From Gammaproteobacteria bacterium (lineage in GTDB: Bacteria; Pseudomonadota; Gammaproteobacteria; Eutrophobiales; Eutrophobiaceae), in assembly GCA_965243105.1 (NCBI GenBank), contig CBDEUC010000003.1:2487541-2551540 (forward strand): a stretch of 64,000 nt of DNA, in the 5' to 3' direction. Shown piece after piece: positions 13,227 to 46,229 of the stretch (its first letter is position 1; every line of letters starts with the position of its first letter). The notes beneath the pieces were generated by a model, which did no database searches, was not told the origin of the DNA, and saw only the letters and a program-made list of their open reading frames with translations. The translations under genes were made by a program, and so were the position numbers.

Positions 13227-13474
13227 TACACTCCATAATAAGCACCATGAAGGTGCACCTGGTTTTAATTGTGAGCCAGCGAGTCAGGCCGTAGCTGTTT
13301 TAATACTGTAAAAGCTGCATTCGAGCCGACGAAGATGGGCACAGTAAGAGGCAGCCAGATAGAAGTCAATAGAGGAAAGTTCGAATAAAATTTAGTAAAA
13401 ACTCGAAAAAATCGAAGTTTCCACTGAGCAAAGAAGGCTCCTGTGCCGGTTGACATCCCAGCAACCGGGGAGTG

Positions 13475-14185
13475 TCAAAAAGAATGGTGCAGGCTGACCT
13501 GGATTTGCCCCTTGTCGACGTTGCTGGTTGCCTGGTGCATATAGCCGCCCTGTATTTTGAAGTTCTTTGTAAGGCTGTATCCAAGCGCGGCATAGAGACG
13601 ATTTCGATCAAAGGTTTTTACGCGCCGACCGTTGCCAATATTTTTTTCCAGGTTGAGAAAGATCTCGTTATAAATTGCAAGATACCAGGTGCCCGGGTCA
13701 ATGTGGGTGTTATTCAGTGGAATATCCATGAACAGTGCGTAGCGGAAACGAGTGCGAAAGTCCTGGTCCTCCACCCATCGCTGCTCTGTACGAAATCGGT
13801 GCCTGAACTTGAGGCGTTCGCCAAGCCCGTGCCGAACCAGGGCTTCCTGGTAAATACGGTGTTCATTGCTGGTGGCATCGCTGTCCCCAAAAGCACCGGA
13901 AGTAATATTGGCGTAACCCTGTGTCAGCGTCACAACCTTGTTCCTCGTGGTCCAGGTCAGCCCACCCCTGAGCAACAATTGCTCCAGGTCACCACCAAGA
14001 TCCCAGTTACGATATTGCACATCTCCCTGCAGACCCCATTGCGATCCTTCAAATTGTTTGGCGAAAAAGTACATGTACCATGCGCCAGTATCGTCCTCGT
14101 CGATAGCCTGCTGCGCAAAGGAAACGCCGGGCAGCATCTTCAACACCAGGATAAGGCACAGTAATTTCTTGATTGGCTTATTCAT
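13475..14185 (-). CDS. Outer-membrane beta-barrel protein (DUF2490-like)
   Basis: Signal peptide ending SFA after the internal start MNKPIKK. Aromatic-rich alternating beta strands and a C-terminal F. Confidence 0.5.
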   Translation of the reverse strand: MNKPIKKLLCLILVLKMLPGVSFAQQAIDEDDTGAWYMYFFAKQFEGSQWGLQGDVQYRNWDLGGDLEQLLLRGGLTWTTRNKVVTLTQGYANITSGAFGDSDATSNEHRIYQEALVRHGLGERLKFRHRFRTEQRWVEDQDFRTRFRYALFMDIPLNNTHIDPGTWYLAIYNEIFLNLEKNIGNGRRVKTFDRNRLYAALGYSLTKNFKIQGGYMHQATSNVDKGQIQVSLHHSF

Positions 14186-14654
14186 ACGGGGCGGGATTAT
14201 GCACAAATACATCGGTGTTCTTCAATTTTTATGCAGCGCTTGGCGAGGGGTAAACGCGCATTCGGGTAAGTTTTCGCGTCGAACATCAGCGCCAGGCTGC
14301 GTGGATATCTTGAAAGTCTTGCTTGTCATGGCAATGGATTATAACCGTATTTGTCACCCATTTGAGGTAGTCAGTGTCAGAATTCCGTAAGCGAAAAGCA
14401 GTAATATCTCCTGCGCTGACATAAATCTGTCCTTATTTGATGCATACCGGGCCAGTCCCTGCTGGCAGCCTGCCTTCACTTGCGGGTTCGCTCGATTAAC
14501 GATTATCATTTGTCGACTTTCCTTGTCTTATACATCTCGAATGTGTTTTCGAAACTGCTTTCGAACATCTTTTGAGTAGATTTGCTGAGTCCAATCTATA
14601 AATAAAAACAACAATTCAGGGGTCTGAATCGTCGCAGGGGGAACCGCGAGGGAA

Positions 14655-15467
14655 ATGGAGGAAAAGAGTCCGGAAGATGCAGGGTTGCCTTCGCCCGAGA
14701 GCCTGGTGCAGGACATTGGGCGGGGCAGGTTACAAGCTGAGGGCTTACTCGTCTCCCGTTACTGGCGCAGCCTGTATTTCATACTCCAGCGCCGAAGCAA
14801 TGATGTTGATCTCGCTGCTGACATTGCCCAGGACACCTTCATGGTGGTCATTCGCAAGGCCCGCAATGGTGAAATAACCAATCCTTCTGCTGTCGCCGCG
14901 TTTATTCGCCAGACCGGTATTAACCTGCTTATCGCGCATTACAGGAAGGAAAAAAGAAGAAATACAGAGGCTGACAGCGATATTATTCTTGACGCCGCCG
15001 ATAGCTCACCTGGCCTGTTACAGTCAGTAGAAGCAGAAAAGGTATTCGAACTCGTCATCCAGGTGCTGGAAGAGTTAAAGGTCGAAAGAGACCGCGAGAT
15101 TCTAAAGGCCTATTTTTTACATGAAGAAGAAAAAGCCGCGATATGCGACCGCCTGGGGCTGAGCCACGAACATTTTGACCGGGTACTTCACAGGGCCAGG
15201 GGCAGGTTAAAGCAATTACTTGAATTCAAGTACGGGGAAATCAAGCTAACTGGTGCAGAAGAGAGCATCGCCAGTACCCTGTTACTGATGCTTTTTCTCA
15301 TTGAAACAGCTCATATTCCTTATCATCCGCATAATTTCTCTAATTCTGCATTTACAGTGAGAGAACCGCACTCTTCCCATCACTATGAAGGCAGAAACGA
15401 GATTTACGGAAGAATCTTCAACTCGGGAGGGGAGGACAGCTATACCTGTCCCATGAAAACCAGTTGA
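14655..15467 (+). CDS. ECF-type RNA polymerase sigma factor with a roughly 80-aa C-terminal extension
   Basis: Sigma-70 region 2 (DIAQDTFMVV) and region 4 (REILKAYFLHEE...). The extra C-terminal segment includes a hydrophobic stretch. Confidence 0.75.
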   Translation: MEEKSPEDAGLPSPESLVQDIGRGRLQAEGLLVSRYWRSLYFILQRRSNDVDLAADIAQDTFMVVIRKARNGEITNPSAVAAFIRQTGINLLIAHYRKEKRRNTEADSDIILDAADSSPGLLQSVEAEKVFELVIQVLEELKVERDREILKAYFLHEEEKAAICDRLGLSHEHFDRVLHRARGRLKQLLEFKYGEIKLTGAEESIASTLLLMLFLIETAHIPYHPHNFSNSAFTVREPHSSHHYEGRNEIYGRIFNSGGEDSYTCPMKTS

Positions 15468-15478
15468 GAGTGAATTAA

Positions 15479-16117
15479 ATGGATAAAGACTACATAGAAG
15501 AGCAGGACATTTCGGGTAAATACCTGCGTGGCGAGTTAACTGCTGAAGAAATAGAGAGCTTTGAGCTTCTGTTCATGGATGACCCGGAACTGTTGGAGCG
15601 ACTTGAACTTGACGCAGCGTTTTTTCGACATGCAGGTGGTGCGCACGAAGAAATTGATAATGTTAATAAAAACAGCACTTGGTTATCGTTTATCCAGGTT
15701 GCCATGGGCATGGCAGCGGGTGTACTGATCATGACTTTTGTACCCCAGTTAACCAGGGATGATGAGGATTTACTGGACACCCTTGGTATTGCCCAGGTCG
15801 AATACATTGATGAACTCAGGGGTGTTGATCCGGGTAAGGTTCCAACACGCTCGATTGAGTTAAACAGTAGCGCAGAGAACCTGGTGATTGTCATTGATAC
15901 CGGTGACATATTAAACATGTCCTATGACATCGTTATTAACAGGAACTCAGGAAACAGGCAGGTGGTCTCCAGCGTTATTAATGTCGCTGATACAACGGGT
16001 GAACTTGTCATTTATATTCCCGTGAGACTTATTAGTGAAGATGTTTATGTCCTGACAATGTATGAGAGTGGCACTCGTGATGTGATGAAAACATTCTTTC
16101 TTGATGTAAGCCATTAG
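15479..16117 (+). CDS. Single-pass membrane protein in the anti-sigma position (putative anti-sigma factor)
   Basis: Lies 12 nt downstream of the ECF sigma gene. Cytoplasmic N-terminus, one TM (WLSFIQVAMGMAAGVLIMTFV), periplasmic C-terminus. No zinc-binding anti-sigma motif. Confidence 0.4.
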   Translation: MDKDYIEEQDISGKYLRGELTAEEIESFELLFMDDPELLERLELDAAFFRHAGGAHEEIDNVNKNSTWLSFIQVAMGMAAGVLIMTFVPQLTRDDEDLLDTLGIAQVEYIDELRGVDPGKVPTRSIELNSSAENLVIVIDTGDILNMSYDIVINRNSGNRQVVSSVINVADTTGELVIYIPVRLISEDVYVLTMYESGTRDVMKTFFLDVSH

Positions 16118-16145: not shown

Positions 16146-17444
16146 ATGAAAAAAAAAGATATACGGGCACTTATTCCGGAGATAGCGACGAGCATGACGG
16201 GTGCCAGTTATGGCTCTTCTACATTGAGCGCCGGTATGACCTACCTGGGTCAGTTTATCTCTCACGAAATCGTTCCTAACACCATAAAGCTGACTACTTC
16301 ACGGGTAGTCACAAGAGAACTTAACCTTGACAGCGTCTATGGTGACAACAGTCTTTACACCAACCTGCTCGGGGATAAGGATAATATTTTCTTTCGCAAA
16401 AACGGGCGGTTTGTCCTGAATGAAAACAATCCGCATGACCTGAACAGGATTGAAAAGGGCCCCTTGAAGGGAACCGCCGTTATACCGGAGCAGCGTAATG
16501 ATGAAAACATGATCATTGCGCAACTGCACCTGCTGTGGCAAAAGTTACACAATGCCCTGATGGATAAAGGTATCGCAAGGAGTGCCCTGGATGCGCGAAA
16601 GATAGTCACGCTCATGATTCAGGTGGTTATTATCGAGGATTACCTGCACCAGGTGCTGGACGAGAATGTGTTTCACGCTTACTTCAGAAGCAGCAGGAAA
16701 TACCTGAAATTCGATTTCACCAGCATCCCGACTTTTTTTTCACACGCTGGTTTCCGCTTCGGGCATAGCATGGTCCGTGAAGTCTATGAAGTGAACAACG
16801 GCAGGAAGCTGCCCCTGTTAAGTCTCTTCGGCAGTGAAATGCCTATCCCGGGCGACAAGGCCATTTCATGGGACAAGTTTTTTAGAATCGACGGTAGTGA
16901 AAGTGCGCAGAAAGCGCTTGAAATAAATACTTTTATCAGCACACACATGAAAAGCATACCAGGCAGTGGTTTGCATAACATCACAACCCATATTATCGAG
17001 CGTAATCTTCTTGCCGGGTTGGAAGCCGGTTTGCCAGGTGGTAAGGAGTTTGTACAGTCAGTTATGGAACAATGCAATCGCTGCGACATCAAGAAAGACC
17101 TTGACCTCCACCTGCTGGAGGATATCTCGCAGGCTTCTTTCAGCGATGTCAAAGGCCTTTCCATTGATAACCTGCCATTGTGGCTCTATATCCTTTACGA
17201 GGCACAGGTGGAACATTCAGGTTTCAGGCTGGGCGTCCTCGGAAGCATGATCGCCGCGGAGGTATTAAGTGCCTCAATGTCCGGTGCTGCTATTTCCGTA
17301 TATAAGAATGACACTTACGAGGTAGATGAAGTTATGGAAATGCTTGACGAATTAGTTCCGGGATTCACGTCGGGATTTGATGTGAATTTCAAACAGGCCG
17401 ACATGTTCATGTCGAATTTGATCAAATTTGTGGAAAACAGCTAG
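16146..17444 (+). CDS. Short bacterial haem peroxidase of the peroxidase-cyclooxygenase (animal haem peroxidase) superfamily
   Basis: Distal-His region LGQFISHEI. REHNR-like helix RNDENMIIAQLHLLWQKLHN. Proximal FRFGH motif (AGFRFGHSMV). No signal peptide. Confidence 0.5.
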   Translation: MKKKDIRALIPEIATSMTGASYGSSTLSAGMTYLGQFISHEIVPNTIKLTTSRVVTRELNLDSVYGDNSLYTNLLGDKDNIFFRKNGRFVLNENNPHDLNRIEKGPLKGTAVIPEQRNDENMIIAQLHLLWQKLHNALMDKGIARSALDARKIVTLMIQVVIIEDYLHQVLDENVFHAYFRSSRKYLKFDFTSIPTFFSHAGFRFGHSMVREVYEVNNGRKLPLLSLFGSEMPIPGDKAISWDKFFRIDGSESAQKALEINTFISTHMKSIPGSGLHNITTHIIERNLLAGLEAGLPGGKEFVQSVMEQCNRCDIKKDLDLHLLEDISQASFSDVKGLSIDNLPLWLYILYEAQVEHSGFRLGVLGSMIAAEVLSASMSGAAISVYKNDTYEVDEVMEMLDELVPGFTSGFDVNFKQADMFMSNLIKFVENS

Positions 17445-17455
17445 GAGGAGGAAAG

Positions 17456-17950
17456 ATGGCTAAAGACTATAAGAAGGAAACGGACTGGGCGGCAGGGCCC
17501 CACAACGTATCGACAGCTATATTCGAGGTGGATAATTCCCAGGCAGAAAAACATACCGATCTACATCCGTATCTTCCCAGTGACAATGGCAAGTACAAGT
17601 TCAAATCGCTGGTGTATCCCGACGGAGCGGGTGGTCACTTTATTTTCCAGATACCCGATGATAACGGGCCATGGGATAAAAACATGGGCGTTATTATGCG
17701 TTCGCTGAAGTTAAAATTGCAGGATGATGAAAAAGGTAATCCTTACCTGCTGGACGCAAATGTCAGCTACGATCTGAAAGGGGGTAGCATTGGTAATGAT
17801 CCCGGTTGGGATGTCACCGAGTGGCGTGTCGATGTTGCGAATATTGGTAGGGAGGATGAAGAAATCCTGGACACGGTTACCTGGACCAAGGAAGGTGTAG
17901 GTACGATCCAGACCTTCGCCAAGTGGCGTCCTTACAAAGAGCTCGCATAA
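17456..17950 (+). CDS. Hypothetical 164-aa protein with no recognisable family
   Basis: Strong RBS (TAGGAGGAGG) 6 nt before the ATG. Sits between the peroxidase and CHAT genes with 11-nt and 22-nt gaps. Confidence 0.5.
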   Translation: MAKDYKKETDWAAGPHNVSTAIFEVDNSQAEKHTDLHPYLPSDNGKYKFKSLVYPDGAGGHFIFQIPDDNGPWDKNMGVIMRSLKLKLQDDEKGNPYLLDANVSYDLKGGSIGNDPGWDVTEWRVDVANIGREDEEILDTVTWTKEGVGTIQTFAKWRPYKELA

Positions 17951-17972: not shown

Positions 17973-20666
17973 ATGGGAGTGAGATTCCTGTTTTTAAGTT
18001 TGAGCCTTCTGGTTTGTCCAGGGGCTCTCGCCTGCGATGTTGAGTTGATTTTCTCAAGGTCATTGCCTTCCGCGCAGGGATCAAGGAGTGACCCTGTCGG
18101 AGCGCTGGCAATTCACGAGGAATATTTGCAGCAGGTGTCCTGCAGAAGCAGCCCCGCTACTCGAGCCGGTAGTTCTATCAAGCTTGTCGAGCTAATCCTT
18201 AACAAGGCGCAACATGGGTCGGCTAGCCGGGAAGCCTTGCATGAAAATGCGATTGCGCTGATCAGTGATGCAAAAAATGAAAGTAAGGCTAATGGTTTGT
18301 ATATCGAGTATGCACGCCTTCTTCAATTGCAGTGGGTCCTGCATCTCCAGATAAATGAATCCATAAAAGGCCTGGAGCTGCTACCCGAGGCTATTGATTA
18401 CTTAAAACGAGCTGAAGCTCCCACTGAATTGATCGCGGAGATTTATAAAGATCTTTCCTACACCTATATCCTGGCAGGAGAATTCTCCAGTGCGAAAACA
18501 TACCTGAGACGGGCTGTTGTTCTTACAGTAAATTCCAGCGATGACGATCTAAAAACAGAAATTATCCTGTCTATCGCTGATGCCTATAGAAAAACGGCCG
18601 AGCTCGAAATTGCAACAAGATACTATCGGCAGGCATATTCAATCAACGAGGCGAAAAACAATGAATTCAAGTACGACGCCCTGCTCAAGCTGGGTACCCT
18701 CGACAGGGAACAGGGCTACATTGACAGGGCTGTTAAGAAACATCTTAATTCCTACGAATTCTTTAAAAGTGGAAATTATTACAGGTCACTGGTAGCTGAA
18801 ATCGAACTTGCCCGTGATTTCCTGGCAAAGAGTGATCTTGAACAGTCAAGCAAGTACGCATTACTCGCCTTCAATGATAGTCGTGCGTTCACTGAGCAAA
18901 AACTCGATGCAGTGCTGGTATTGATGAAATCCGATCCGGGTAACTGGGAAAAATGGTCGAATGAAATCCAGGCTATCCTGGAGAGCGCTATAGCAAGATC
19001 AGGCACTGATGTTGCTCACCCGATACGCCAGCTGGAGCATGCTCGCCTGGAACTTGGGTATGTTTCAGAATCAGGAGATGAAGATGCTATCAGGCAAGTA
19101 GGTGAAAAAGGATTACGCGTATTCACAAGGTTACGCGATGACTTGAACCGCTCAGAGGAGGCTTACCACGGCTGGATGGCGTCCGCAAAACCCTTTATCA
19201 GCACCTATATCAAGACACTCTATCACACGGACAAGGAGCGCCTGTTTGATGTCCTTGAAAAAACCTACTCAATTAGTCCGAAACCGAACCAGTTACAAGG
19301 CGCTCCCCTGCTTAATCAGCAAAAGGAACCAGAAGAGATTGCCCTTTTTGAAGCCTATCTTGGCGCCGAGAAAATGGTGGTCGATGCCAGTTCGGACTGG
19401 GAAAAGGAACGTAATACTACTAACAGGGAAAAGCTGGAGCAGCTCAAAACAAGCAGGGACCTGGCAAGAGAAGCTTACCTTGAATCGAGGAAAAGCAAGC
19501 AAGAGAAAATTATTCCTCGGCCCGAAGTCGTCGAAATGACACCGAGTGAAATCGCTCCTGGAGACCTGTTTCTCAGGTATTACCTGCAAAAAGATATCAG
19601 CCTGTTGCTGGCAAGGCATGCGGGTGGTGAAGAGATTATCGAGTTGCCAGCTCGCTCAGAAATAAGAAAGCTGGTGAACGAACTGGACGAGCTTTTCCTG
19701 TCTGGTGGATCGAGCCGTGCAAAGCGACTGCAGTTACTGGGCCAGTTACGGGTGCTGTTGCCAGTACAATTATTGCAGGACAGGGATTTCCTCAGGCTGG
19801 TCATCCTGCCCGATGACGAGATCCACAGGGTACCCTTTTCCGCGATCAACCTGGAAAACCGGGATGGCTTCTATAAACCTGTTTCGAGCAAGTATCGAAT
19901 TACACGAACACATTCGGCATACCAGTACTATGCCGGGAATAGCCAGGGCAACATGAATGTTGAAAATACCGGTGCTGATATCCTGGTATTTGCCGATCCA
20001 CATTTTGACGAATATCGGCATGCTGGTAGTTCCTCAGACTCTTTCAGGAACTGGTCAAGGAACCTTGCTCGATTACCGCACACAGCGGATGAAGCCAGGC
20101 AAATCGTTACTCTTTTCCCCGATAAGAAAACCGCTGTTTTCCAGGGTAAAGAAGCTACGGACGCAATCCTGTTATCAGAGCAGGCAAGATTGGCAAATGT
20201 TCTGCATATTGCCACTCACGGTTACTACAACCAGAACACACCGGACATTGTTGGTGTCGCAACAGCGGTGGAAGACAAGGATGGTAATCCACAAAGGGGT
20301 TTCCTGAGCTTGTCAGCATTGCTGAGCATGCCCTATAACTCGGACTTAATTGTCATCAGCGGTTGTGAAACTATGCTTGGAAAAGAATATGACGGTTTTG
20401 GCGTGCAGGGCCTTGCCCAGGCCTTCATTGCACAAGGTGCTGGCTCCGTTGTCGGTACGCTATGGAAAGTTGCAGATAAACCCACCTCGATATTTATGAG
20501 GTACTTCTACGAGGCGCTGAAATCAAATGGCGGCAACAGTTCCCTGGCATTAAATACTGCCAGGAACAGGTTGGCATCAATGGGGAGATACAGGGATCCG
20601 ATTTACTGGGCTGCATTTGTCCTGACTTCGGCGAATACCTCGTTTGAGGAAAACATTCTTCATTGA
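17973..20666 (+). CDS. Secreted TPR-repeat protein with a C-terminal CHAT (caspase-like) peptidase domain
   Basis: Signal peptide (LLVCPGALA). TPR-like helical repeats. CHAT His/Cys dyad (HIATHGYY and ISGCETMLG). Confidence 0.75.
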   Translation: MGVRFLFLSLSLLVCPGALACDVELIFSRSLPSAQGSRSDPVGALAIHEEYLQQVSCRSSPATRAGSSIKLVELILNKAQHGSASREALHENAIALISDAKNESKANGLYIEYARLLQLQWVLHLQINESIKGLELLPEAIDYLKRAEAPTELIAEIYKDLSYTYILAGEFSSAKTYLRRAVVLTVNSSDDDLKTEIILSIADAYRKTAELEIATRYYRQAYSINEAKNNEFKYDALLKLGTLDREQGYIDRAVKKHLNSYEFFKSGNYYRSLVAEIELARDFLAKSDLEQSSKYALLAFNDSRAFTEQKLDAVLVLMKSDPGNWEKWSNEIQAILESAIARSGTDVAHPIRQLEHARLELGYVSESGDEDAIRQVGEKGLRVFTRLRDDLNRSEEAYHGWMASAKPFISTYIKTLYHTDKERLFDVLEKTYSISPKPNQLQGAPLLNQQKEPEEIALFEAYLGAEKMVVDASSDWEKERNTTNREKLEQLKTSRDLAREAYLESRKSKQEKIIPRPEVVEMTPSEIAPGDLFLRYYLQKDISLLLARHAGGEEIIELPARSEIRKLVNELDELFLSGGSSRAKRLQLLGQLRVLLPVQLLQDRDFLRLVILPDDEIHRVPFSAINLENRDGFYKPVSSKYRITRTHSAYQYYAGNSQGNMNVENTGADILVFADPHFDEYRHAGSSSDSFRNWSRNLARLPHTADEARQIVTLFPDKKTAVFQGKEATDAILLSEQARLANVLHIATHGYYNQNTPDIVGVATAVEDKDGNPQRGFLSLSALLSMPYNSDLIVISGCETMLGKEYDGFGVQGLAQAFIAQGAGSVVGTLWKVADKPTSIFMRYFYEALKSNGGNSSLALNTARNRLASMGRYRDPIYWAAFVLTSANTSFEENILH

Positions 20667-20732: not shown

Positions 20733-22223
20733 CTAGTCCCAGGAAAAATCACCATCCTGGTTCAAGGGCACCCCTTCCAGTTCAAATGCCCTGACCAGGG
20801 GCTCTAGTTCTGACTCGTAGTTTTTCCAACGGTACACGGACTTACTATAGATAGGTTGCCTGACCTGCCAGCTACTGGCTGTCCTGACGGACCTGCCGAA
20901 CTCCTGTGGTGAAAGACAATTCTCATCCCACTCTAGATCAAGGAAATCCAGGAGAGCTCTAATTTCCCTTTCACCATGACCAACCAGGTCCTGGTATCTC
21001 ATGGTATAAACGGGTATATCCAGGTTCTTTGTCCAGTGCTGCATTAATTTCAGGTACCCGGAGTAATAACAGGCGATATTACTCAAGGTGAAACTGAAAG
21101 ACTGTGAGTCTACAAAATTTTGAAAATAACAGGACAGGCAGGTATCAAGCGTGTTCCTGACACAATGAATAATGCGGGCCCTGGGGAAGATTAGCTTGAT
21201 CAAGGGCAAGTAGGTAAAGTTTGCAGGCATTTTATCAATAAAACGCACAGGACCAGCGCCTACCAGGTTTTCCGCTTTTTCCAGGTAAAGCTGTGCGAAA
21301 TCTTGCAACTTTTCCCTGGTTATATTTTCACGGTAGCCACTGAATGCATCTGATGTACCGGAAGTGATTACCCTACCAGACTTGTTTGTTGATAATTTAC
21401 CGCTAATAACCCTCTTATTTTTACACAATTCAAAATAAAAAAAGTTGTGAATATCTCTCAGCTCTCCCATACCAGCCACATCCCGGTGGGAAGCAAGAAT
21501 TTGCTCTGTTAATGTCGTGCCTGACCGGGGCATGCCGACTATAAAAACAGGCCTGTCATCACTTACCCCGCTTGATTGGACCGAGGCCATATATTCCACT
21601 GAAAAATTGGCAATCAGTTGATTAATATGCTGGTGAAAATCTGTTTGGCTGAATTGTAACTGGACCCGGGCATTGCCTTTACGATAATGACGAAATGCCT
21701 CCCGGTAATTTTTACAGTCATCGTAGATTTTCCCCAATGTAAAATGCAAAGTACATTGTGCGTCTTGCGATATGTCGGGTTGCCTTAAAAGCTCTTCTGC
21801 TTTACTAATTAGAGATTCTTCACCTGAATATTTCTTACAATGTGCCAGTTGATAATAACTGTTAGCAAATGACGGATTTAACTCGAGTGATTTTAAATAC
21901 AGGGTCTCCGCTTCCGAAAAAAGACCCATATCAAACTTGGCATTACCCATCCTGTATATGGGCAAATAGGATTCACCATGTAACTTGATGACCGTGGCAA
22001 GTATTGCTATTGCATCTTCAGCCTTATGTTGTTGTTGAAGTGCCAGGGCAAGCCCGAGCATGGCTGAAAAATTGTTTTCGGACTGTTCAAGTATTTGCCG
22101 GTAAATGATTTCTGCGTCTTCCGGCTTTTTCTCATTATGATACTGGCGCGCCTTCAGCAGTTGTTCGTCGAAGCGGGCTTTCCGTGGCCTTATTTGGCCT
22201 TTTATTTCATAGTTCTTGTTCAT
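20733..22223 (-). CDS. TPR-repeat protein fused to a sulfotransferase domain
   Basis: N-terminal TPRs. PAPS-binding 5'-PSB-like motif GMPRSGTT and a downstream sulfotransferase region. Confidence 0.7.
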   Translation of the reverse strand: MNKNYEIKGQIRPRKARFDEQLLKARQYHNEKKPEDAEIIYRQILEQSENNFSAMLGLALALQQQHKAEDAIAILATVIKLHGESYLPIYRMGNAKFDMGLFSEAETLYLKSLELNPSFANSYYQLAHCKKYSGEESLISKAEELLRQPDISQDAQCTLHFTLGKIYDDCKNYREAFRHYRKGNARVQLQFSQTDFHQHINQLIANFSVEYMASVQSSGVSDDRPVFIVGMPRSGTTLTEQILASHRDVAGMGELRDIHNFFYFELCKNKRVISGKLSTNKSGRVITSGTSDAFSGYRENITREKLQDFAQLYLEKAENLVGAGPVRFIDKMPANFTYLPLIKLIFPRARIIHCVRNTLDTCLSCYFQNFVDSQSFSFTLSNIACYYSGYLKLMQHWTKNLDIPVYTMRYQDLVGHGEREIRALLDFLDLEWDENCLSPQEFGRSVRTASSWQVRQPIYSKSVYRWKNYESELEPLVRAFELEGVPLNQDGDFSWD

Positions 22224-22277: not shown

Positions 22278-24425
22278 CTAACTGAAAATATCTCCTGCCC
22301 GGATTTTCTCATCAACGATGGCGGGGCAGCGAAAACGCTCACCATATAAGCTGGTAAGTTCGTTACAGCGCTGACTAAAATTCTCCAGGCCATAGGTATT
22401 GACGAACTGTATAAAGCCCCCGGTCCAGACCGGTGCACCAATGCCCATGATGGAACCGATGTTTCCGTCGACGACTGACCTCAAAACACCGGTTTCAAGA
22501 CATTTGAGAGTTTCAATCACCTGCCTGAATAGCAGCCTGTCCTTCACATCCTGGTCATCAATGTCGAACACGGGGTTGTAATACTTGTCCAGCAGTGAAG
22601 GCCACACGGTCCTGTTACCATCCTCGGTATAGTCATAAAAACCGCCGTTGTGATGTTTACCTCCACGGTTATTTTGATTCACCAGGAAATCCAGTACTTC
22701 CCGTTGAATATCCAGCTCACCCCACTTGTCTTTTTCTCCCATTGCATCCCAGGTCTCAATGATCTTCAATGACAGCTGCTGGCTGACTTCATCATAGATA
22801 GTTATAGGGCCTACAGGCATACCGAGAGCTTTTCCAAGATTATCTATTTTTACCGGGTGAAGTCCTTCGTGCAGCAGGCGGACCCCTTCATTGAGATAGG
22901 TGCCAAAAGTACGCGAAGTGAAAAAGCCCAGTGAATCGTTTACCACGATGGGAGTCTTTCTAATCTGTTGCGTGTAATCAAAGGCACGTGCCAGTGTTTC
23001 ATCGCTGGTTAATTCGCCACAGATGATTTCTACCAGGGGCATCTTGTCTACGGGCGAGAAAAAATGGATGCCGATAAAATTTTCCGGGTGTGAACTTGCC
23101 TGAGCCAACCCGGTAATAGGCAGGGTGGAGGTATTTGAACCCCAGACCCCGTTAGCTACAAGGTATTTTTCCAAAGACTTGATAATTTCATTTTTTACAT
23201 CCTTATTTTCAAAGACGGCTTCGATGATGAGATCGCAGCCCTCAAGCTCATTATCATTCGCGGTTGCCTTGATGAGTCCAAGTACCTGCTCCTTGCCTGG
23301 TTCATCCATACGACCCTGCTGCACTCTCTTGTTCAACAATTTTTCTGAATAGGCTTTACCCCTGTCAGCAGATTCCTGGCTGACGTCTTTCAAGATCACT
23401 TCGATACCGGCCATTGCGGAGACATAGGCGATCCCCTGGCCCATCATTCCTGCACCCAGGACACCGACTTTATTCACCCGGCTTTTCTCCACGTCGACAG
23501 GACGACTGGCGCCGCTATTGACCTTGTTGAGCCCGAAAAAGAAGGTGGTGATCATATTCCTGGCCACATCGGTCTGCACCAGGCGGGTAAAAGCCCGTGA
23601 CTCGACACGCAGTGCCGTGTCAAAGTCCACGGTAGCAGCCTGTACCGCACAATCAAGCACCTCGGCAGGCGCCGGCAGCAGGCCACGGGTTTTCTGCGCC
23701 GTCATGGCAGGCGCGCCCATCAGGACCTGTGCCAGTCGCGGTGAATTTGCACCGCCACCGGGAATCTTGTGACCTTTACGGTCCCAGGGCTGGAAGGCGG
23801 CTTCTTCATTACCTTTTTGTGCAAGAAGCCAGTCTCTTGCCCGAGGTAGCAAATCATCCAGGCTTTGCACCGTCTCGTGGATGAGCCCGGCCTGCAGGGC
23901 CTGTTGAGCATCAAGCTTCCTGCCTTCAAGAAGATAGGGCGCTGATTGTTCCAGTCCAAGCAGGTTGACGGTCCGGACAATTCCACCGGCACCCGGGAGC
24001 AACCCAAGAGTCACTTCCGGCAAACCCAATTGAACCGATTTGTCATCAAGCGCAATGCGGTAGTTGCAGGCAAGGCAAATCTCAAACCCACCCCCGAGAG
24101 CTGCCCCGTTGATAGCCGCAACTACAGGCACCGGCAGCTTTTCAAGACGGCGAAACTGTAATTTTACTTTTTCAACCATGTCAAAGAATTCACTTTCAGA
24201 TCCGGGCTTCACTGCAAGAAGCTCATTCAGATCACCACCTGCAAAGAAAACTTTCTTTGCTGATGCGATAATGACGCCACCCAGTTCTTCTTCTTTCTCC
24301 AGCCTGTCCACGGTGCTGACCATGGCTTCGCGATACTCTGCGTTCATGCAGTTGACCGGGCCTGACTGGTCCATGGTAATCGTGACTATGCCGTCACTGT
24401 CTTTCTCGTATTTAAAAACACTCAT
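22278..24425 (-). CDS. Fatty-acid oxidation complex alpha subunit (enoyl-CoA hydratase/3-hydroxyacyl-CoA dehydrogenase, FadB/FadJ-like)
   Basis: Crotonase fold followed by an NAD-binding 3HCDH domain (GVLGAGMMGQGIA). Start placed at the internal MSVFKYEK so it does not overlap the thiolase. Confidence 0.85.
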   Translation of the reverse strand: MSVFKYEKDSDGIVTITMDQSGPVNCMNAEYREAMVSTVDRLEKEEELGGVIIASAKKVFFAGGDLNELLAVKPGSESEFFDMVEKVKLQFRRLEKLPVPVVAAINGAALGGGFEICLACNYRIALDDKSVQLGLPEVTLGLLPGAGGIVRTVNLLGLEQSAPYLLEGRKLDAQQALQAGLIHETVQSLDDLLPRARDWLLAQKGNEEAAFQPWDRKGHKIPGGGANSPRLAQVLMGAPAMTAQKTRGLLPAPAEVLDCAVQAATVDFDTALRVESRAFTRLVQTDVARNMITTFFFGLNKVNSGASRPVDVEKSRVNKVGVLGAGMMGQGIAYVSAMAGIEVILKDVSQESADRGKAYSEKLLNKRVQQGRMDEPGKEQVLGLIKATANDNELEGCDLIIEAVFENKDVKNEIIKSLEKYLVANGVWGSNTSTLPITGLAQASSHPENFIGIHFFSPVDKMPLVEIICGELTSDETLARAFDYTQQIRKTPIVVNDSLGFFTSRTFGTYLNEGVRLLHEGLHPVKIDNLGKALGMPVGPITIYDEVSQQLSLKIIETWDAMGEKDKWGELDIQREVLDFLVNQNNRGGKHHNGGFYDYTEDGNRTVWPSLLDKYYNPVFDIDDQDVKDRLLFRQVIETLKCLETGVLRSVVDGNIGSIMGIGAPVWTGGFIQFVNTYGLENFSQRCNELTSLYGERFRCPAIVDEKIRAGDIFS

Positions 24426-24438
24426 GCTCAAGATCCTG

Positions 24439-25647
24439 TTATACGCGTTCAATAATGGTCGATATACCCATGCCACCGCCGATGCAAAGAGACAGCATGG
24501 CACGTTTTAACGAACGTCTTTCCAGCTCATCCATCATGGTGCTGACAAGCATTGCACCCGTGGCTCCAAGGGGGTGGCCCATGGCTATGGCACCTCCGTT
24601 AACATTTGTGATTTCATGATCGATATCAAGATCGCGCATGTAACGCATTGCCACCGATGCGAAAGCTTCATTGATTTCCCAAAGGTCAATGTCCTTCTTT
24701 TCCAGGCCGGCCTTTTTAAGGCACTTTTCCGCTGCAGGTCCCGGACCAGTTAACATGATAATAGGATCAGTAGATAACACTGCTGTTGCCACGACACGTC
24801 CCCGGGGTGTCAGTCCGAGATCCTTTCCTGCCTTTTCGCTACCAACCAGGACTGCACTGGATCCGTCGACAATGCCGGAAGAGTTGCCCGGCGTGTGAAC
24901 GTGGTTCACTTTCTGGAGGGTGTTGTATTTCCTGATGATGATGTCATCAAAGCCATACTGGCCCATCGCCTCAAAAGACGGTTTAAGTGCGGCCAGGCCT
25001 GCCATGGACGTGTCGGGCTTGATGAAATCATCTTGGTCAAGGATGGTAATACCGTTTTTGTCTTTGACCGGTACGACGGAACGGTCGAAATAACCATTTT
25101 CCCTGGCATGGCTCGCGCGTTTCTGGGATTCGACGGCATAGGCATCCACGTCTTCACGGGACCATCCCTCGAGCGTGGCAATAGTGTCAGCACCGATACC
25201 CTGTGGCACAAAGCCCGTTTTCATTGCGAAGGCGGCATCCTGCACCATGGCCCCGCCATTACTGAACATGGGTACCCGTGACATTGATTCAATACCCCCG
25301 GCAACTACGAGATCTTCCCAGCCGGAAGCCACCTTCTGTGCGGCAATGTTCACAGCTTCCAGGCCTGAGGCACAAAACCGGTCCAGCTGCATCCCTGCCA
25401 CGGACTCGTCCCAATCGGCATTTTGCACGATCATTTTTGCGACATCGCTACCCTGTTCACCCACCGGCGTCACGCAGCCCATAACCACGTCATCTACGTA
25501 AGAAGTATCAAGGTCGTGCCGGCTTTGAAGTTCCCTCAACAGGCCTGCGCCCAGGTCGATAGGCTTTACCTCGTGCAGGCTGCCGTCCTTTTTACCCTTG
25601 CTGCGAGGGGTTCTCAGGGCATCATAAATATAGGCATTCTCGGGCAT
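24439..25647 (-). CDS. 3-ketoacyl-CoA thiolase (FadA/FadI-like)
   Basis: Thiolase N- and C-terminal signatures with active-site Cys contexts. Lies upstream of fadB/J on the same strand, which is the fadIJ-like order. Confidence 0.85.

Positions 25648-44525: not shown

Positions 44526-46229
<1,704 letters not shown>

Follow-up and report, generated by a model that had tools for sequence, protein, structure and literature searches.

Analysis of a 64,000-nucleotide stretch of DNA (referred to here as the window) from a Gammaproteobacteria bacterium (GenBank assembly GCA_965243105.1, contig CBDEUC010000003.1, positions 2,487,541 to 2,551,540 of the forward strand) revealed a gene predicted to encode an exported caspase-fold cysteine protease, in which a tetratricopeptide repeat (TPR) superhelix is followed by a C-terminal CHAT domain. 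This gene is the last of a five-gene cassette that also encodes a sigma factor of the extracytoplasmic function (ECF) type, a putative single-pass anti-sigma factor, a homolog of animal heme peroxidases, and a small Trp-rich protein (Table 1). By analogy with DdvA, a transmembrane anti-sigma factor of Myxococcus xanthus with a periplasmic TPR-CHAT region (PMC11506125), we propose that the cassette could be a split version of that system, in which the exported TPR-CHAT protein would both sense the signal and make the site-1 cut in the anti-sigma factor, with the peroxidase as the output, a proposal in which we place slightly less than even confidence. Somewhat more tentative is our view that the free-standing exported caspase-like protein is a dedicated site-1 protease that cuts the anti-sigma factor after Arg114, as part of a widespread three-component device that would signal from the envelope to the cytoplasm and have the peroxidase, with the Trp-rich protein as its partner, as its output.

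The hydrophobic segment at the start of the CHAT protein is its true N-terminus, since there is an in-frame stop codon at position 17898 and no start codon between this position and the ATG at 17973. It is also the sole hydrophobic segment of the protein, and it has the parts of a signal peptide, with an n-region (MGVR) charged at R4, a 15-residue h-region (F5-L19, containing FLFLSLSLLVCPGAL), and a c-region in which A18-L19-A20 is followed by C21-D22. No twin-arginine motif was found in this N-terminus. These calls, like all signal peptide calls made here, come from a simple rule-based test of the n-, h-, and c-regions and not from a dedicated predictor. In the AlphaFold2 (AF2) model described below, residues 1 to 44, which comprise the signal peptide and a low-complexity linker, are disordered (pLDDT below 50); an ortholog with 84% identity keeps the signal peptide and diverges in the linker. 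A first-pass annotation of the window, made from the sequence alone, had called a clear signal peptide here; it indeed looks cleavable, and we found the same design across the family, with 102 of 129 full-length members (about 80%) positive in the rule-based test. Among the proteins encoded alongside, the same test was positive for 2 of 55 peroxidases, none of 17 small proteins, 3 of 62 sigma factors, and 1 of 41 anti-sigma factors. Several of the 27 relatives that scored negative visibly have signal peptides or are truncated gene models. Export is thus predicted to be a trait of the family, at about 80% of its full-length members, and not an oddity of the window gene.

The predicted cleavage site is followed by a Cys. 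Set against the lipobox [LVI][ASTVI][GAS]C, with an invariant Cys at +1, the sequence A-L-A-C21 fits only under a permissive PROSITE-style rule, Leu at -2 and Ala at -3 being atypical. This Cys is kept in the 84% ortholog, yet it is found in just 15 of the 102 signal-peptide-positive relatives. The mature TPR-CHAT protein may be soluble in the periplasm or, in the lineage of the window, possibly lipid anchored via Cys21. Since a lipobox-like Cys occurs in just fifteen members, including the query, lipid anchoring may occur in some lineages and is not a defining property of the family.

The CHAT domain itself is a strong Pfam match (172.3 bits where 24 is the cut-off; E=2e-50, covering positions 14 to 286 of the 289-position profile), and the His/Cys dyad that had been read from the motifs HIATHGYY and ISGCETMLG proved to be intact. 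H745, H749, and C798 do not vary within a 31-member family alignment. In an alignment of 37 distant CHAT proteins made with a C-terminal profile, H749 was present in 35 of 35 sequences, C798 in 38 of 38, W831 in 37 of 38, and D835 in 32 of 38, so that the aligned catalytic Cys is present throughout. The dyad motifs H749-G750 and S796-G797-C798-E799-T800 stand at aligned positions, and SGC798ET aligns with GAC627ET of the Scalindua brodae Csx29 chain (C-terminal profile, E of about 0.02), in which we take Cys627 to be the catalytic Cys. H749, the His directly before Gly, is the caspase-type catalytic His, and the gene is predicted to encode an active caspase-fold (TPR-CHAT) cysteine protease. 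We also considered Asp835, in a WxVxD motif, as a family-specific determinant of substrate specificity and rejected it; the residue is uninformative on specificity because it is conserved in CHAT domains generally.

An AF2 model built with the 31-sequence family alignment had a pLDDT of 85.3 and a pTM of 0.85; it replaced a single-sequence model that was uninformative (pLDDT 40). The N-terminal superhelix consists of about two dozen helices in continuous hairpins, residues 531 to 603 form a small beta/alpha subdomain with a three-stranded sheet and helices, and the alpha/beta core of the CHAT domain extends to residue 886. The first-pass annotation, which had proposed such a structure prediction, was right about the helical repeats and too generous about their length, which is about 465 residues in the model and not about 550. 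The helical part is genuinely TPR, since the family profile matches designed consensus TPR proteins with an E value of 1e-45 and relatives exceed the Pfam thresholds for TPR_2 and TPR_12; the query's own TPR matches in Pfam (residues 132 to 295) are under threshold. NCBIfam holds no specific model for the protein and gave only a weak TPR-type likeness to LapB, and a phmmer search of the PDB returned TPR proteins only. With Foldseek, the best PDB matches were the Csx29 TPR-CHAT protein of the type III-E Craspase (2.9e-14 to 1e-12), DdvA (cryo-EM structure 8rot_A, 1.3e-12, query TM-score 0.41), and separases (1e-11 to 1e-8), all with a probability of 1.00 and identities of 10 to 14%; the alignments with TPR-CHAT chains cover the full length, in 800 to 970 columns. 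The model and these matches place a helical-repeat superhelix and a C-terminal CHAT domain of the caspase/hemoglobinase fold in a single chain.

An exhaustive HMMER search placed this protein in a family of 1,426 cluster representatives at an E value of ≤1e-30. A word-indexed search, which returned the protein itself, one 84% cluster, and CHAT-only matches at about 30% identity, had suggested an orphan; this impression was wrong, because the exhaustive search uncovered the large family. About twenty full-length relatives of 860 to 900 amino acids are 35 to 38% identical to the window protein, and many relatives are longer forms of 1,050 to 1,150 amino acids with an added N-terminal region that is found in most family members beyond the query's subgroup. 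In the long forms (P0064-P0193), an additional 200 to 300 amino acids or so, without a Pfam match, lie between the signal peptide and the TPR domain, and one long-form subgroup begins with a lipobox-like ...F-A-C-P-x-E-E-F-P-G-Q motif. The family is distributed over many Gammaproteobacteria and some Acidobacteriota. In a scan of one genome per species, the nearest relatives beyond the closest contig were from Thiotrichales and Steroidobacteraceae, and cultured genera with the cassette include Steroidobacter, Peristeroidobacter, Paraglaciecola, Agaribacter, Bowmanella, Arenicella, and Pseudohongiella. To judge from these sequence comparisons, the window protein is an ordinary member of a large, unnamed, and uncharacterized family of TPR-CHAT proteins that are predicted to be exported.

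The five genes of the cassette lie on the forward strand with gaps of 11, 28, 11, and 22 nucleotides, and terminator-like sites are no more common in this region than expected by chance; the five genes are probably one operon and co-transcribed. The gene for the 84% ortholog is part of an equivalent five-gene operon and is flanked as in the window. The one-genome-per-species scan, which used the family alignment, gave 80 loci, of which 68 carry true family members. Around these 68, the conserved neighbors were the sigma factor (54 to 61 loci), the anti-sigma factor (52 by clustering and 58 by hidden Markov model [HMM]), and the peroxidase (50 to 52), while every other neighbor cluster was found in at most 9. 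Sigma factor homologs adjoin the CHAT gene in 61 of 82 genome loci. In 49 of 51 loci, an open reading frame (ORF) of 103 to 205 amino acids separates the peroxidase gene from the CHAT gene, and 28 of these ORFs match the small-protein HMM.

The position of the sigma/anti-sigma pair relative to the other genes varies. The order sigma, anti-sigma, peroxidase, small protein, CHAT is found in Alteromonadaceae, Arenicella, and Pseudohongiella; in Steroidobacteraceae, the pair follows the peroxidase, small-protein, and CHAT genes; and in a few loci the pair is convergent. Since the pair can thus be upstream, downstream, or convergent, its persistence points to selection on linkage rather than to inherited synteny. 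In twelve distant CHAT-only loci (L071-L082, from Acidobacteriota, Bacteroidota, and others), no gene for the peroxidase, the small protein, or the anti-sigma factor is present; in L078, a sigma-like ORF lies at a distance of about 1.9 kb from CHAT.

We also ran the test in reverse, searching independent metagenome contigs with an alignment of the sigma factor clade and counting as informative those loci with a strong sigma match and at least 6.5 kb on both sides. All 12 informative loci had the CHAT gene and the anti-sigma gene, and 10 had the peroxidase gene, while the test was positive in only 2 of 6 weaker sigma relatives (E values of 1e-57 to 1e-61). In this reciprocal scan, 14 loci had the sigma, anti-sigma, and CHAT genes without a peroxidase. 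Because these loci keep the triad, we regard it as the core of the cassette, to which the peroxidase and the small protein would be a frequent addition. In the literature that we searched, we found no description of the cassette and no paper that combines "CHAT domain" with "heme peroxidase"; "TPR-CHAT" together with "periplasmic" returned only the DdvA-DdvS study (PMC11506125).

A search for dyad motifs did not establish an ECF promoter shared across loci. A dyad, TGAGACAT-N15/16-GACAGTA, lies 60 to 225 nucleotides upstream of the sigma start in seven loci (L035, L037-L039, L043, L046, and L063) and is a candidate ECF promoter there, but it is confined to a few closely related, Pseudohongiella-type genomes and is absent from the window, which has nothing comparable. 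Separately, three Steroidobacteraceae loci have a related pair, TGAGAGAAGCC...GACAGTTA, in the stretch that separates the sigma gene from the anti-sigma gene.

The protein encoded by the second gene of the cassette matched nothing in Pfam or NCBIfam, and we assign it as an anti-sigma factor because of its architecture and its invariable pairing with an ECF sigma gene. It has a cytoplasmic N-terminal helix motif, one transmembrane helix at about residues 66 to 89, and a beta-rich periplasmic domain of about 120 residues. The conserved N-terminal residues (Y15, L20, E24, F28, E29, and P36) mark a segment of a kind known from anti-sigma domains but include no zinc ligands, and a Pfam scan of 23 relatives found zf-HC2 in one, weakly (E=0.01). 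A profile search of the PDB with this family gave no match to an anti-sigma domain, and its immunoglobulin (Ig)-like matches to the ectodomain were insignificant. The predicted topology puts the ectodomain and the exported protease together on one side of the membrane.

Within the periplasmic part of this protein, Arg114 is the only position with at least 80% identity. It is present in 59 of 59 distinct sequences in an HMM alignment, about 25 residues outside the membrane, and the residue after it is always Ser, Gly, or Asn. In about half of the sequences there is an acidic residue at P4, three positions upstream of the Arg (for example, L-E-T-M-R|S). We regard the bond between Arg114 and the next residue as a candidate site-1 cleavage site.

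The sigma factor has sigma-2 (residues 32 to 102) and sigma-4 (residues 144 to 187) regions followed by a C-terminal extension of about 80 residues; it matches TIGR02937 with 66 bits against a cut-off of 42.9, and its clade alignment has a mean column identity of 41%. The extension (residues 190 to 270 or so) contains a hydrophobic stretch, IASTLLLMLFLIE, and a [VM]-R-E-x5-H motif. It is common to Alteromonadaceae-type orthologs (253 to 282 amino acids) and missing in the Arenicella and Pseudohongiella types, and Steroidobacter types have a short hydrophobic tail only. It could have a regulatory or membrane-associating role.

The peroxidase homolog matches PF03098 with 50.2 bits against a cut-off of 25. 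Its alignment with myeloperoxidase retains RxxE (R117-E120), presumably the catalytic Arg and the heme-linking Glu, and FRFGH207S, which we take to hold the proximal His; GQFISH40E, read from the sequence, would be the distal-His motif. Like 53 of its 55 relatives, it is without a signal peptide. The small protein belongs to a family of about 120 to 200 amino acids in which W73, W123, W143, and W157 are invariant and which has a C-terminal SWRPY motif. No member has a signal peptide, and searches of Pfam, NCBIfam, and PADLOC gave no match. It may be a partner or a substrate of the peroxidase.

In the mechanism that we propose, the TPR superhelix would sense a periplasmic cue, probably a protein, and the CHAT domain, once activated, would cut the periplasmic stalk of the anti-sigma factor at or beside Arg114. 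Loss of the Ig-like ectodomain would leave a stump open to intramembrane (RseP-type) proteolysis, and the sigma factor would be freed. It would then transcribe its own operon, giving more peroxidase and small protein as the output and more of the sensor components as feedback, a loop suggested by the presence of all five genes in one operon. We favor site-1 cleavage because the triad persists without the peroxidase, because the juxtamembrane Arg is invariant, and because there are two precedents, DdvA and Csx29, for TPR-CHAT proteins linked to sigma factors. The first-pass annotation had suggested that the protease may be regulated through the upstream membrane anti-sigma factor. The architecture and the linkage bear out a connection between the two, and it is stronger than could be known from one locus, since the sigma factor, anti-sigma factor, and CHAT protein form a cassette that is conserved in many genera; the direction of control is more likely to be from the protease to the anti-sigma factor.

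Several points weigh against this model. Prediction of the signal peptide is rule based only. The support for the anti-sigma factor as the substrate is indirect, and the same co-occurrence would be expected if the protease were the main target gene of the sigma factor. We looked for members of this anti-sigma family that are fused to CHAT and found none, its 18 hits all being 177 to 319 amino acids long and without a Pfam domain; the top 150 relatives of the CHAT protein included no such fusion either. The Arg may be invariant for structural reasons or because some other protease cuts there, and the fixed order of the peroxidase, small-protein, and CHAT genes hints at a joint role outside this model. 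The likeness to DdvA is at the level of the fold only (14% identity, TM-score of about 0.41) and is no better than that to Csx29. Finally, no shared ECF-type promoter motif could be established across the loci or in the window, and because of the latter we only infer autoregulation.

The alternative that survives best, which we judge unlikely, is that the TPR-CHAT protein is an effector and not a sensor. The sigma/anti-sigma pair would sense on its own or through an unlinked protease, and the TPR-CHAT protein would be a member of the regulon that processes or degrades other proteins of the envelope or outside the cell (damaged proteins, adhesins, or foreign proteins, for example), with the peroxidase working alongside it in the cytoplasm. 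Target genes of an ECF sigma factor are often part of the sigma operon itself, and the five genes here appear to be co-transcribed; the CHAT gene always follows the peroxidase gene and the small ORF, as in a block of structural genes; and other secreted caspase-fold proteases exist, which, with the lack of CHAT fusions in the anti-sigma family, fits such a role. Co-occurrence alone cannot separate this reading from site-1 cleavage, since it is expected equally under both. However, an effector role does not readily account for the 14 loci that keep the triad without the peroxidase or for the CHAT gene in 12 of 12 informative sigma-clade loci, and it leaves unexplained why the anti-sigma factor has a single conserved residue in its periplasmic part, an Arg of the juxtamembrane stalk. 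In addition, both characterized sigma-linked TPR-CHAT systems put the protease upstream of the sigma factor.

It is improbable that the TPR-CHAT protein is a nonproteolytic partner that, much as RseB or CnrX does, binds the anti-sigma ectodomain and either shields it from other proteases or passes ligand binding on to it, without a cut. TPR domains are protein-binding modules, and the dyad of DdvA is misaligned in the resting structure and can be mutated without a phenotype in unstimulated cells (PMC11506125). However, neither the family nor distant CHAT proteins show variation at H749, at C798, or in the HG and SGCET motifs around them, which disfavors a noncatalytic role, because such motifs fit a working active site and not a pseudoenzyme. 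Less probable again is a regulator of phage defense, in which the cassette would sense phage attack in the periplasm and switch on a defense regulon elsewhere in the genome. This idea draws on the control of a CBASS/CRISPR island by DdvA-DdvS (PMC11506125) and on the association of Csx29 with CRISPR (PMC10028731), but none of the six proteins tested matched a PADLOC defense model, no neighbor outside the cassette is conserved across the 68 loci, and the flanks in the window are metabolic or of unknown function (DUF2490, hemerythrin, sulfotransferase, FadJ, and thiolase). Last, that the protein is not exported, its N-terminal stretch being an uncleaved anchor with a cytoplasmic bulk or a start-codon artifact, finds some room in the rule-based calls and the 27 negative relatives, but it is very improbable because signal peptides are family-wide, in relatives of very different sequence, many of the test failures visibly have signal peptides or are truncated gene models, and the window gene has no alternative upstream start and places an A-x-A site after Arg4 and a 15-residue h-region.

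If the site-1 model is correct, TPR-CHAT control of ECF sigma factors would be a recurrent principle, joining Craspase and DdvA, and the cassette would represent a previously unrecognized class of signaling device that is widespread in marine and soil Gammaproteobacteria. Anti-sigma proteolysis initiated by a periplasmic CHAT domain has so far been proposed for one protein, DdvA (PMC11506125). There, the proposal was not testable, because the signal is unknown and because the protease and the substrate are the same polypeptide (PMC11506125). The cassette splits these two functions into two small, tractable genes and offers a candidate site, Arg114. It would extend caspase-fold signaling proteases from the bacterial cytoplasm to the envelope and would link them to a bacterial member of the animal heme-peroxidase superfamily. 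More than 1,000 proteins annotated as "CHAT domain-containing protein" could gain a functional hypothesis based on gene context.

Among the other features of the window, the gene with TPR and sulfotransferase (PF13469) domains beside the CHAT gene falls outside the conserved cassette. The contig of the 84% relative lacks it and has the FadJ-like gene directly after the CHAT gene; because this contig is otherwise syntenic, the difference suggests a recent insertion or deletion. The true start of the FadJ-like ORF is probably further downstream than the GTG from which it was called; its ortholog in L002 has 715 amino acids. DUF2490 is assigned by Pfam (PF10677, E=8e-48), and the ORF on the opposite strand is almost certainly a shadow ORF. 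An Rfam match to 5_ureB_sRNA (111.7 bits against a gathering score of 40) lies antisense within a 567-amino-acid ORF that is probably a urease subunit gene, and what it picks up may be conserved coding sequence and not a genuine antisense small RNA.

Table 1. Coordinates of the cassette, of the parts of the CHAT protein, and of other features (positions within the window)
Feature	Position	Strand	Details
ECF sigma factor	14655..15467	+	270 aa; Sigma70_r2, Sigma70_r4, TIGR02937
C-terminal extension of sigma factor	15225-15467	+	
Putative single-pass anti-sigma factor	15479..16117	+	212 aa; starts 11 nt after the sigma stop codon
Candidate site-1 cleavage site	15818..15823	+	Arg114-Gly115 codons of the anti-sigma factor; Arg invariant
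Animal-type heme peroxidase homolog, predicted cytoplasmic	16146..17444	+	432 aa; PF03098
Small Trp-rich protein, predicted cytoplasmic	17456..17950	+	164 aa; between peroxidase and CHAT genes
Predicted exported TPR-CHAT protease	17973..20666	+	897 aa; ATG at 17973, TGA at 20664-20666
Predicted signal peptide	17973..18032	+	aa 1-20 (MGVRFLFLSLSLLVCPGALA), then Cys21-Asp22; rule-based n/h/c test and hydrophobicity
TPR/helical-repeat superhelix	18096..19493	+	aa ~42-507; AF2, family profile, Foldseek
CHAT (caspase-fold) domain	19761..20624	+	aa 597-884; PF12770
Predicted catalytic His749 codon	20217-20219	+	HIATH749G
Predicted catalytic Cys798 codon	20364-20366	+	SGC798ET
DUF2490 gene	13475-14212	-	Pfam
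ORF opposite DUF2490 gene	13472-14164	+	230 aa; almost certainly a shadow ORF
TPR and sulfotransferase gene	20733-22223	-	PF13469; convergent with CHAT gene
FadJ-like ORF	22278-24503	-	741 aa, called from GTG; overlaps the upstream thiolase ORF by 65 nt
Thiolase ORF	24439-25647	-	Overlapped by FadJ-like ORF
Rfam 5_ureB_sRNA match	44675-44961	-	Antisense inside the ORF at 44526-46229
Probable urease subunit ORF	44526-46229		567 aa

Separase cleaves after the Arg of an ExxR motif, which recalls the invariant Arg114 with its frequent acidic P4 residue, and like the window protein it joins a TPR-like helical domain to a caspase-fold protease. It differs in being eukaryotic, much larger, regulated by securin, and intracellular, and the likeness does not imply orthology. 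CHAT proteins have also been reported in the genomic context of the ECF54 group, for which proteolytic regulation was proposed (PMC8999054). That group is described as without an anti-sigma factor and with carboxypeptidase and subtilase neighbors, in contrast to the window-type cassette, which always has the anti-sigma gene and usually the peroxidase gene. The text of the ECF reclassification paper mentions neither CHAT nor peroxidase.

Csx29 is the best structural match to the window protein and aligns with it at the catalytic Cys, and its system also acts on an inhibitor of an ECF-type sigma factor, since Csx29 has been shown experimentally to cleave Csx30, which binds and inhibits such a factor (PMC10028731). 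Unlike the window protein with its signal peptide, Csx29 works in the cytoplasm in a complex with Cas7-11 and is switched on by RNA (PMC10028731). No genes for Cas7-11/gRAMP, Csx30, or Csx31 were found among the conserved neighbors of the family, the window shows no CRISPR or cas context, and PADLOC gave no hits for the cassette proteins. The cascades of the DegS/RseA/RseP type and the CnrYXH system resemble the cassette in that the periplasmic sensor or protease and the membrane anti-sigma factor are distinct proteins, and in the former, removal of the ectodomain licenses intramembrane cleavage, as we propose here. DegS is a PDZ serine protease and CnrX is a nonproteolytic sensor, whereas the window candidate would be a caspase-fold cysteine protease with a TPR sensor.

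DdvA has a canonical H862/C907 dyad, and in its dimer the active site of each protomer points toward the flexible linker that leads into the other's transmembrane helix (PMC11506125). Removal of the TPR-CHAT region exposes DdvA to RseP, and its authors proposed signal-induced CHAT autoproteolysis as the site-1 step, which they could not test in that system (PMC11506125). They describe DdvA as the only characterized anti-sigma factor with a TPR-CHAT region and find DdvA-like proteins only in Myxococcota and one Comamonas (PMC11506125). The first-pass annotation noted that most characterized CHAT proteases act in the cytoplasm and that a Sec-exported one implies a periplasmic or extracellular target. 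The predicted export of the window protein stands, and a periplasmic TPR-CHAT protein already has a precedent in the fused domain of DdvA (PMC11506125). The two systems share a TPR and CHAT protein with a His-Cys dyad, predicted to be periplasmic in the case of the window, that is coupled to an ECF sigma factor, by genetic pairing here, and to a single-pass anti-sigma factor, and they share the proposed logic, in which CHAT would make the site-1 cut in a juxtamembrane linker before RseP acts. They differ in that DdvA is one polypeptide, while the window protease is separate, with its own signal peptide and no anti-sigma domain, and the window anti-sigma factor is a separate protein with an Ig-like ectodomain and no zinc-binding CHCC motif. 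The proteins are about 14% identical, the window cassette comes with a heme peroxidase and a small protein, where DdvA-DdvS instead controls a CBASS/CRISPR island, and, unlike the narrowly distributed DdvA-like proteins, the window family is broad, extending over many Gammaproteobacteria and some Acidobacteriota.

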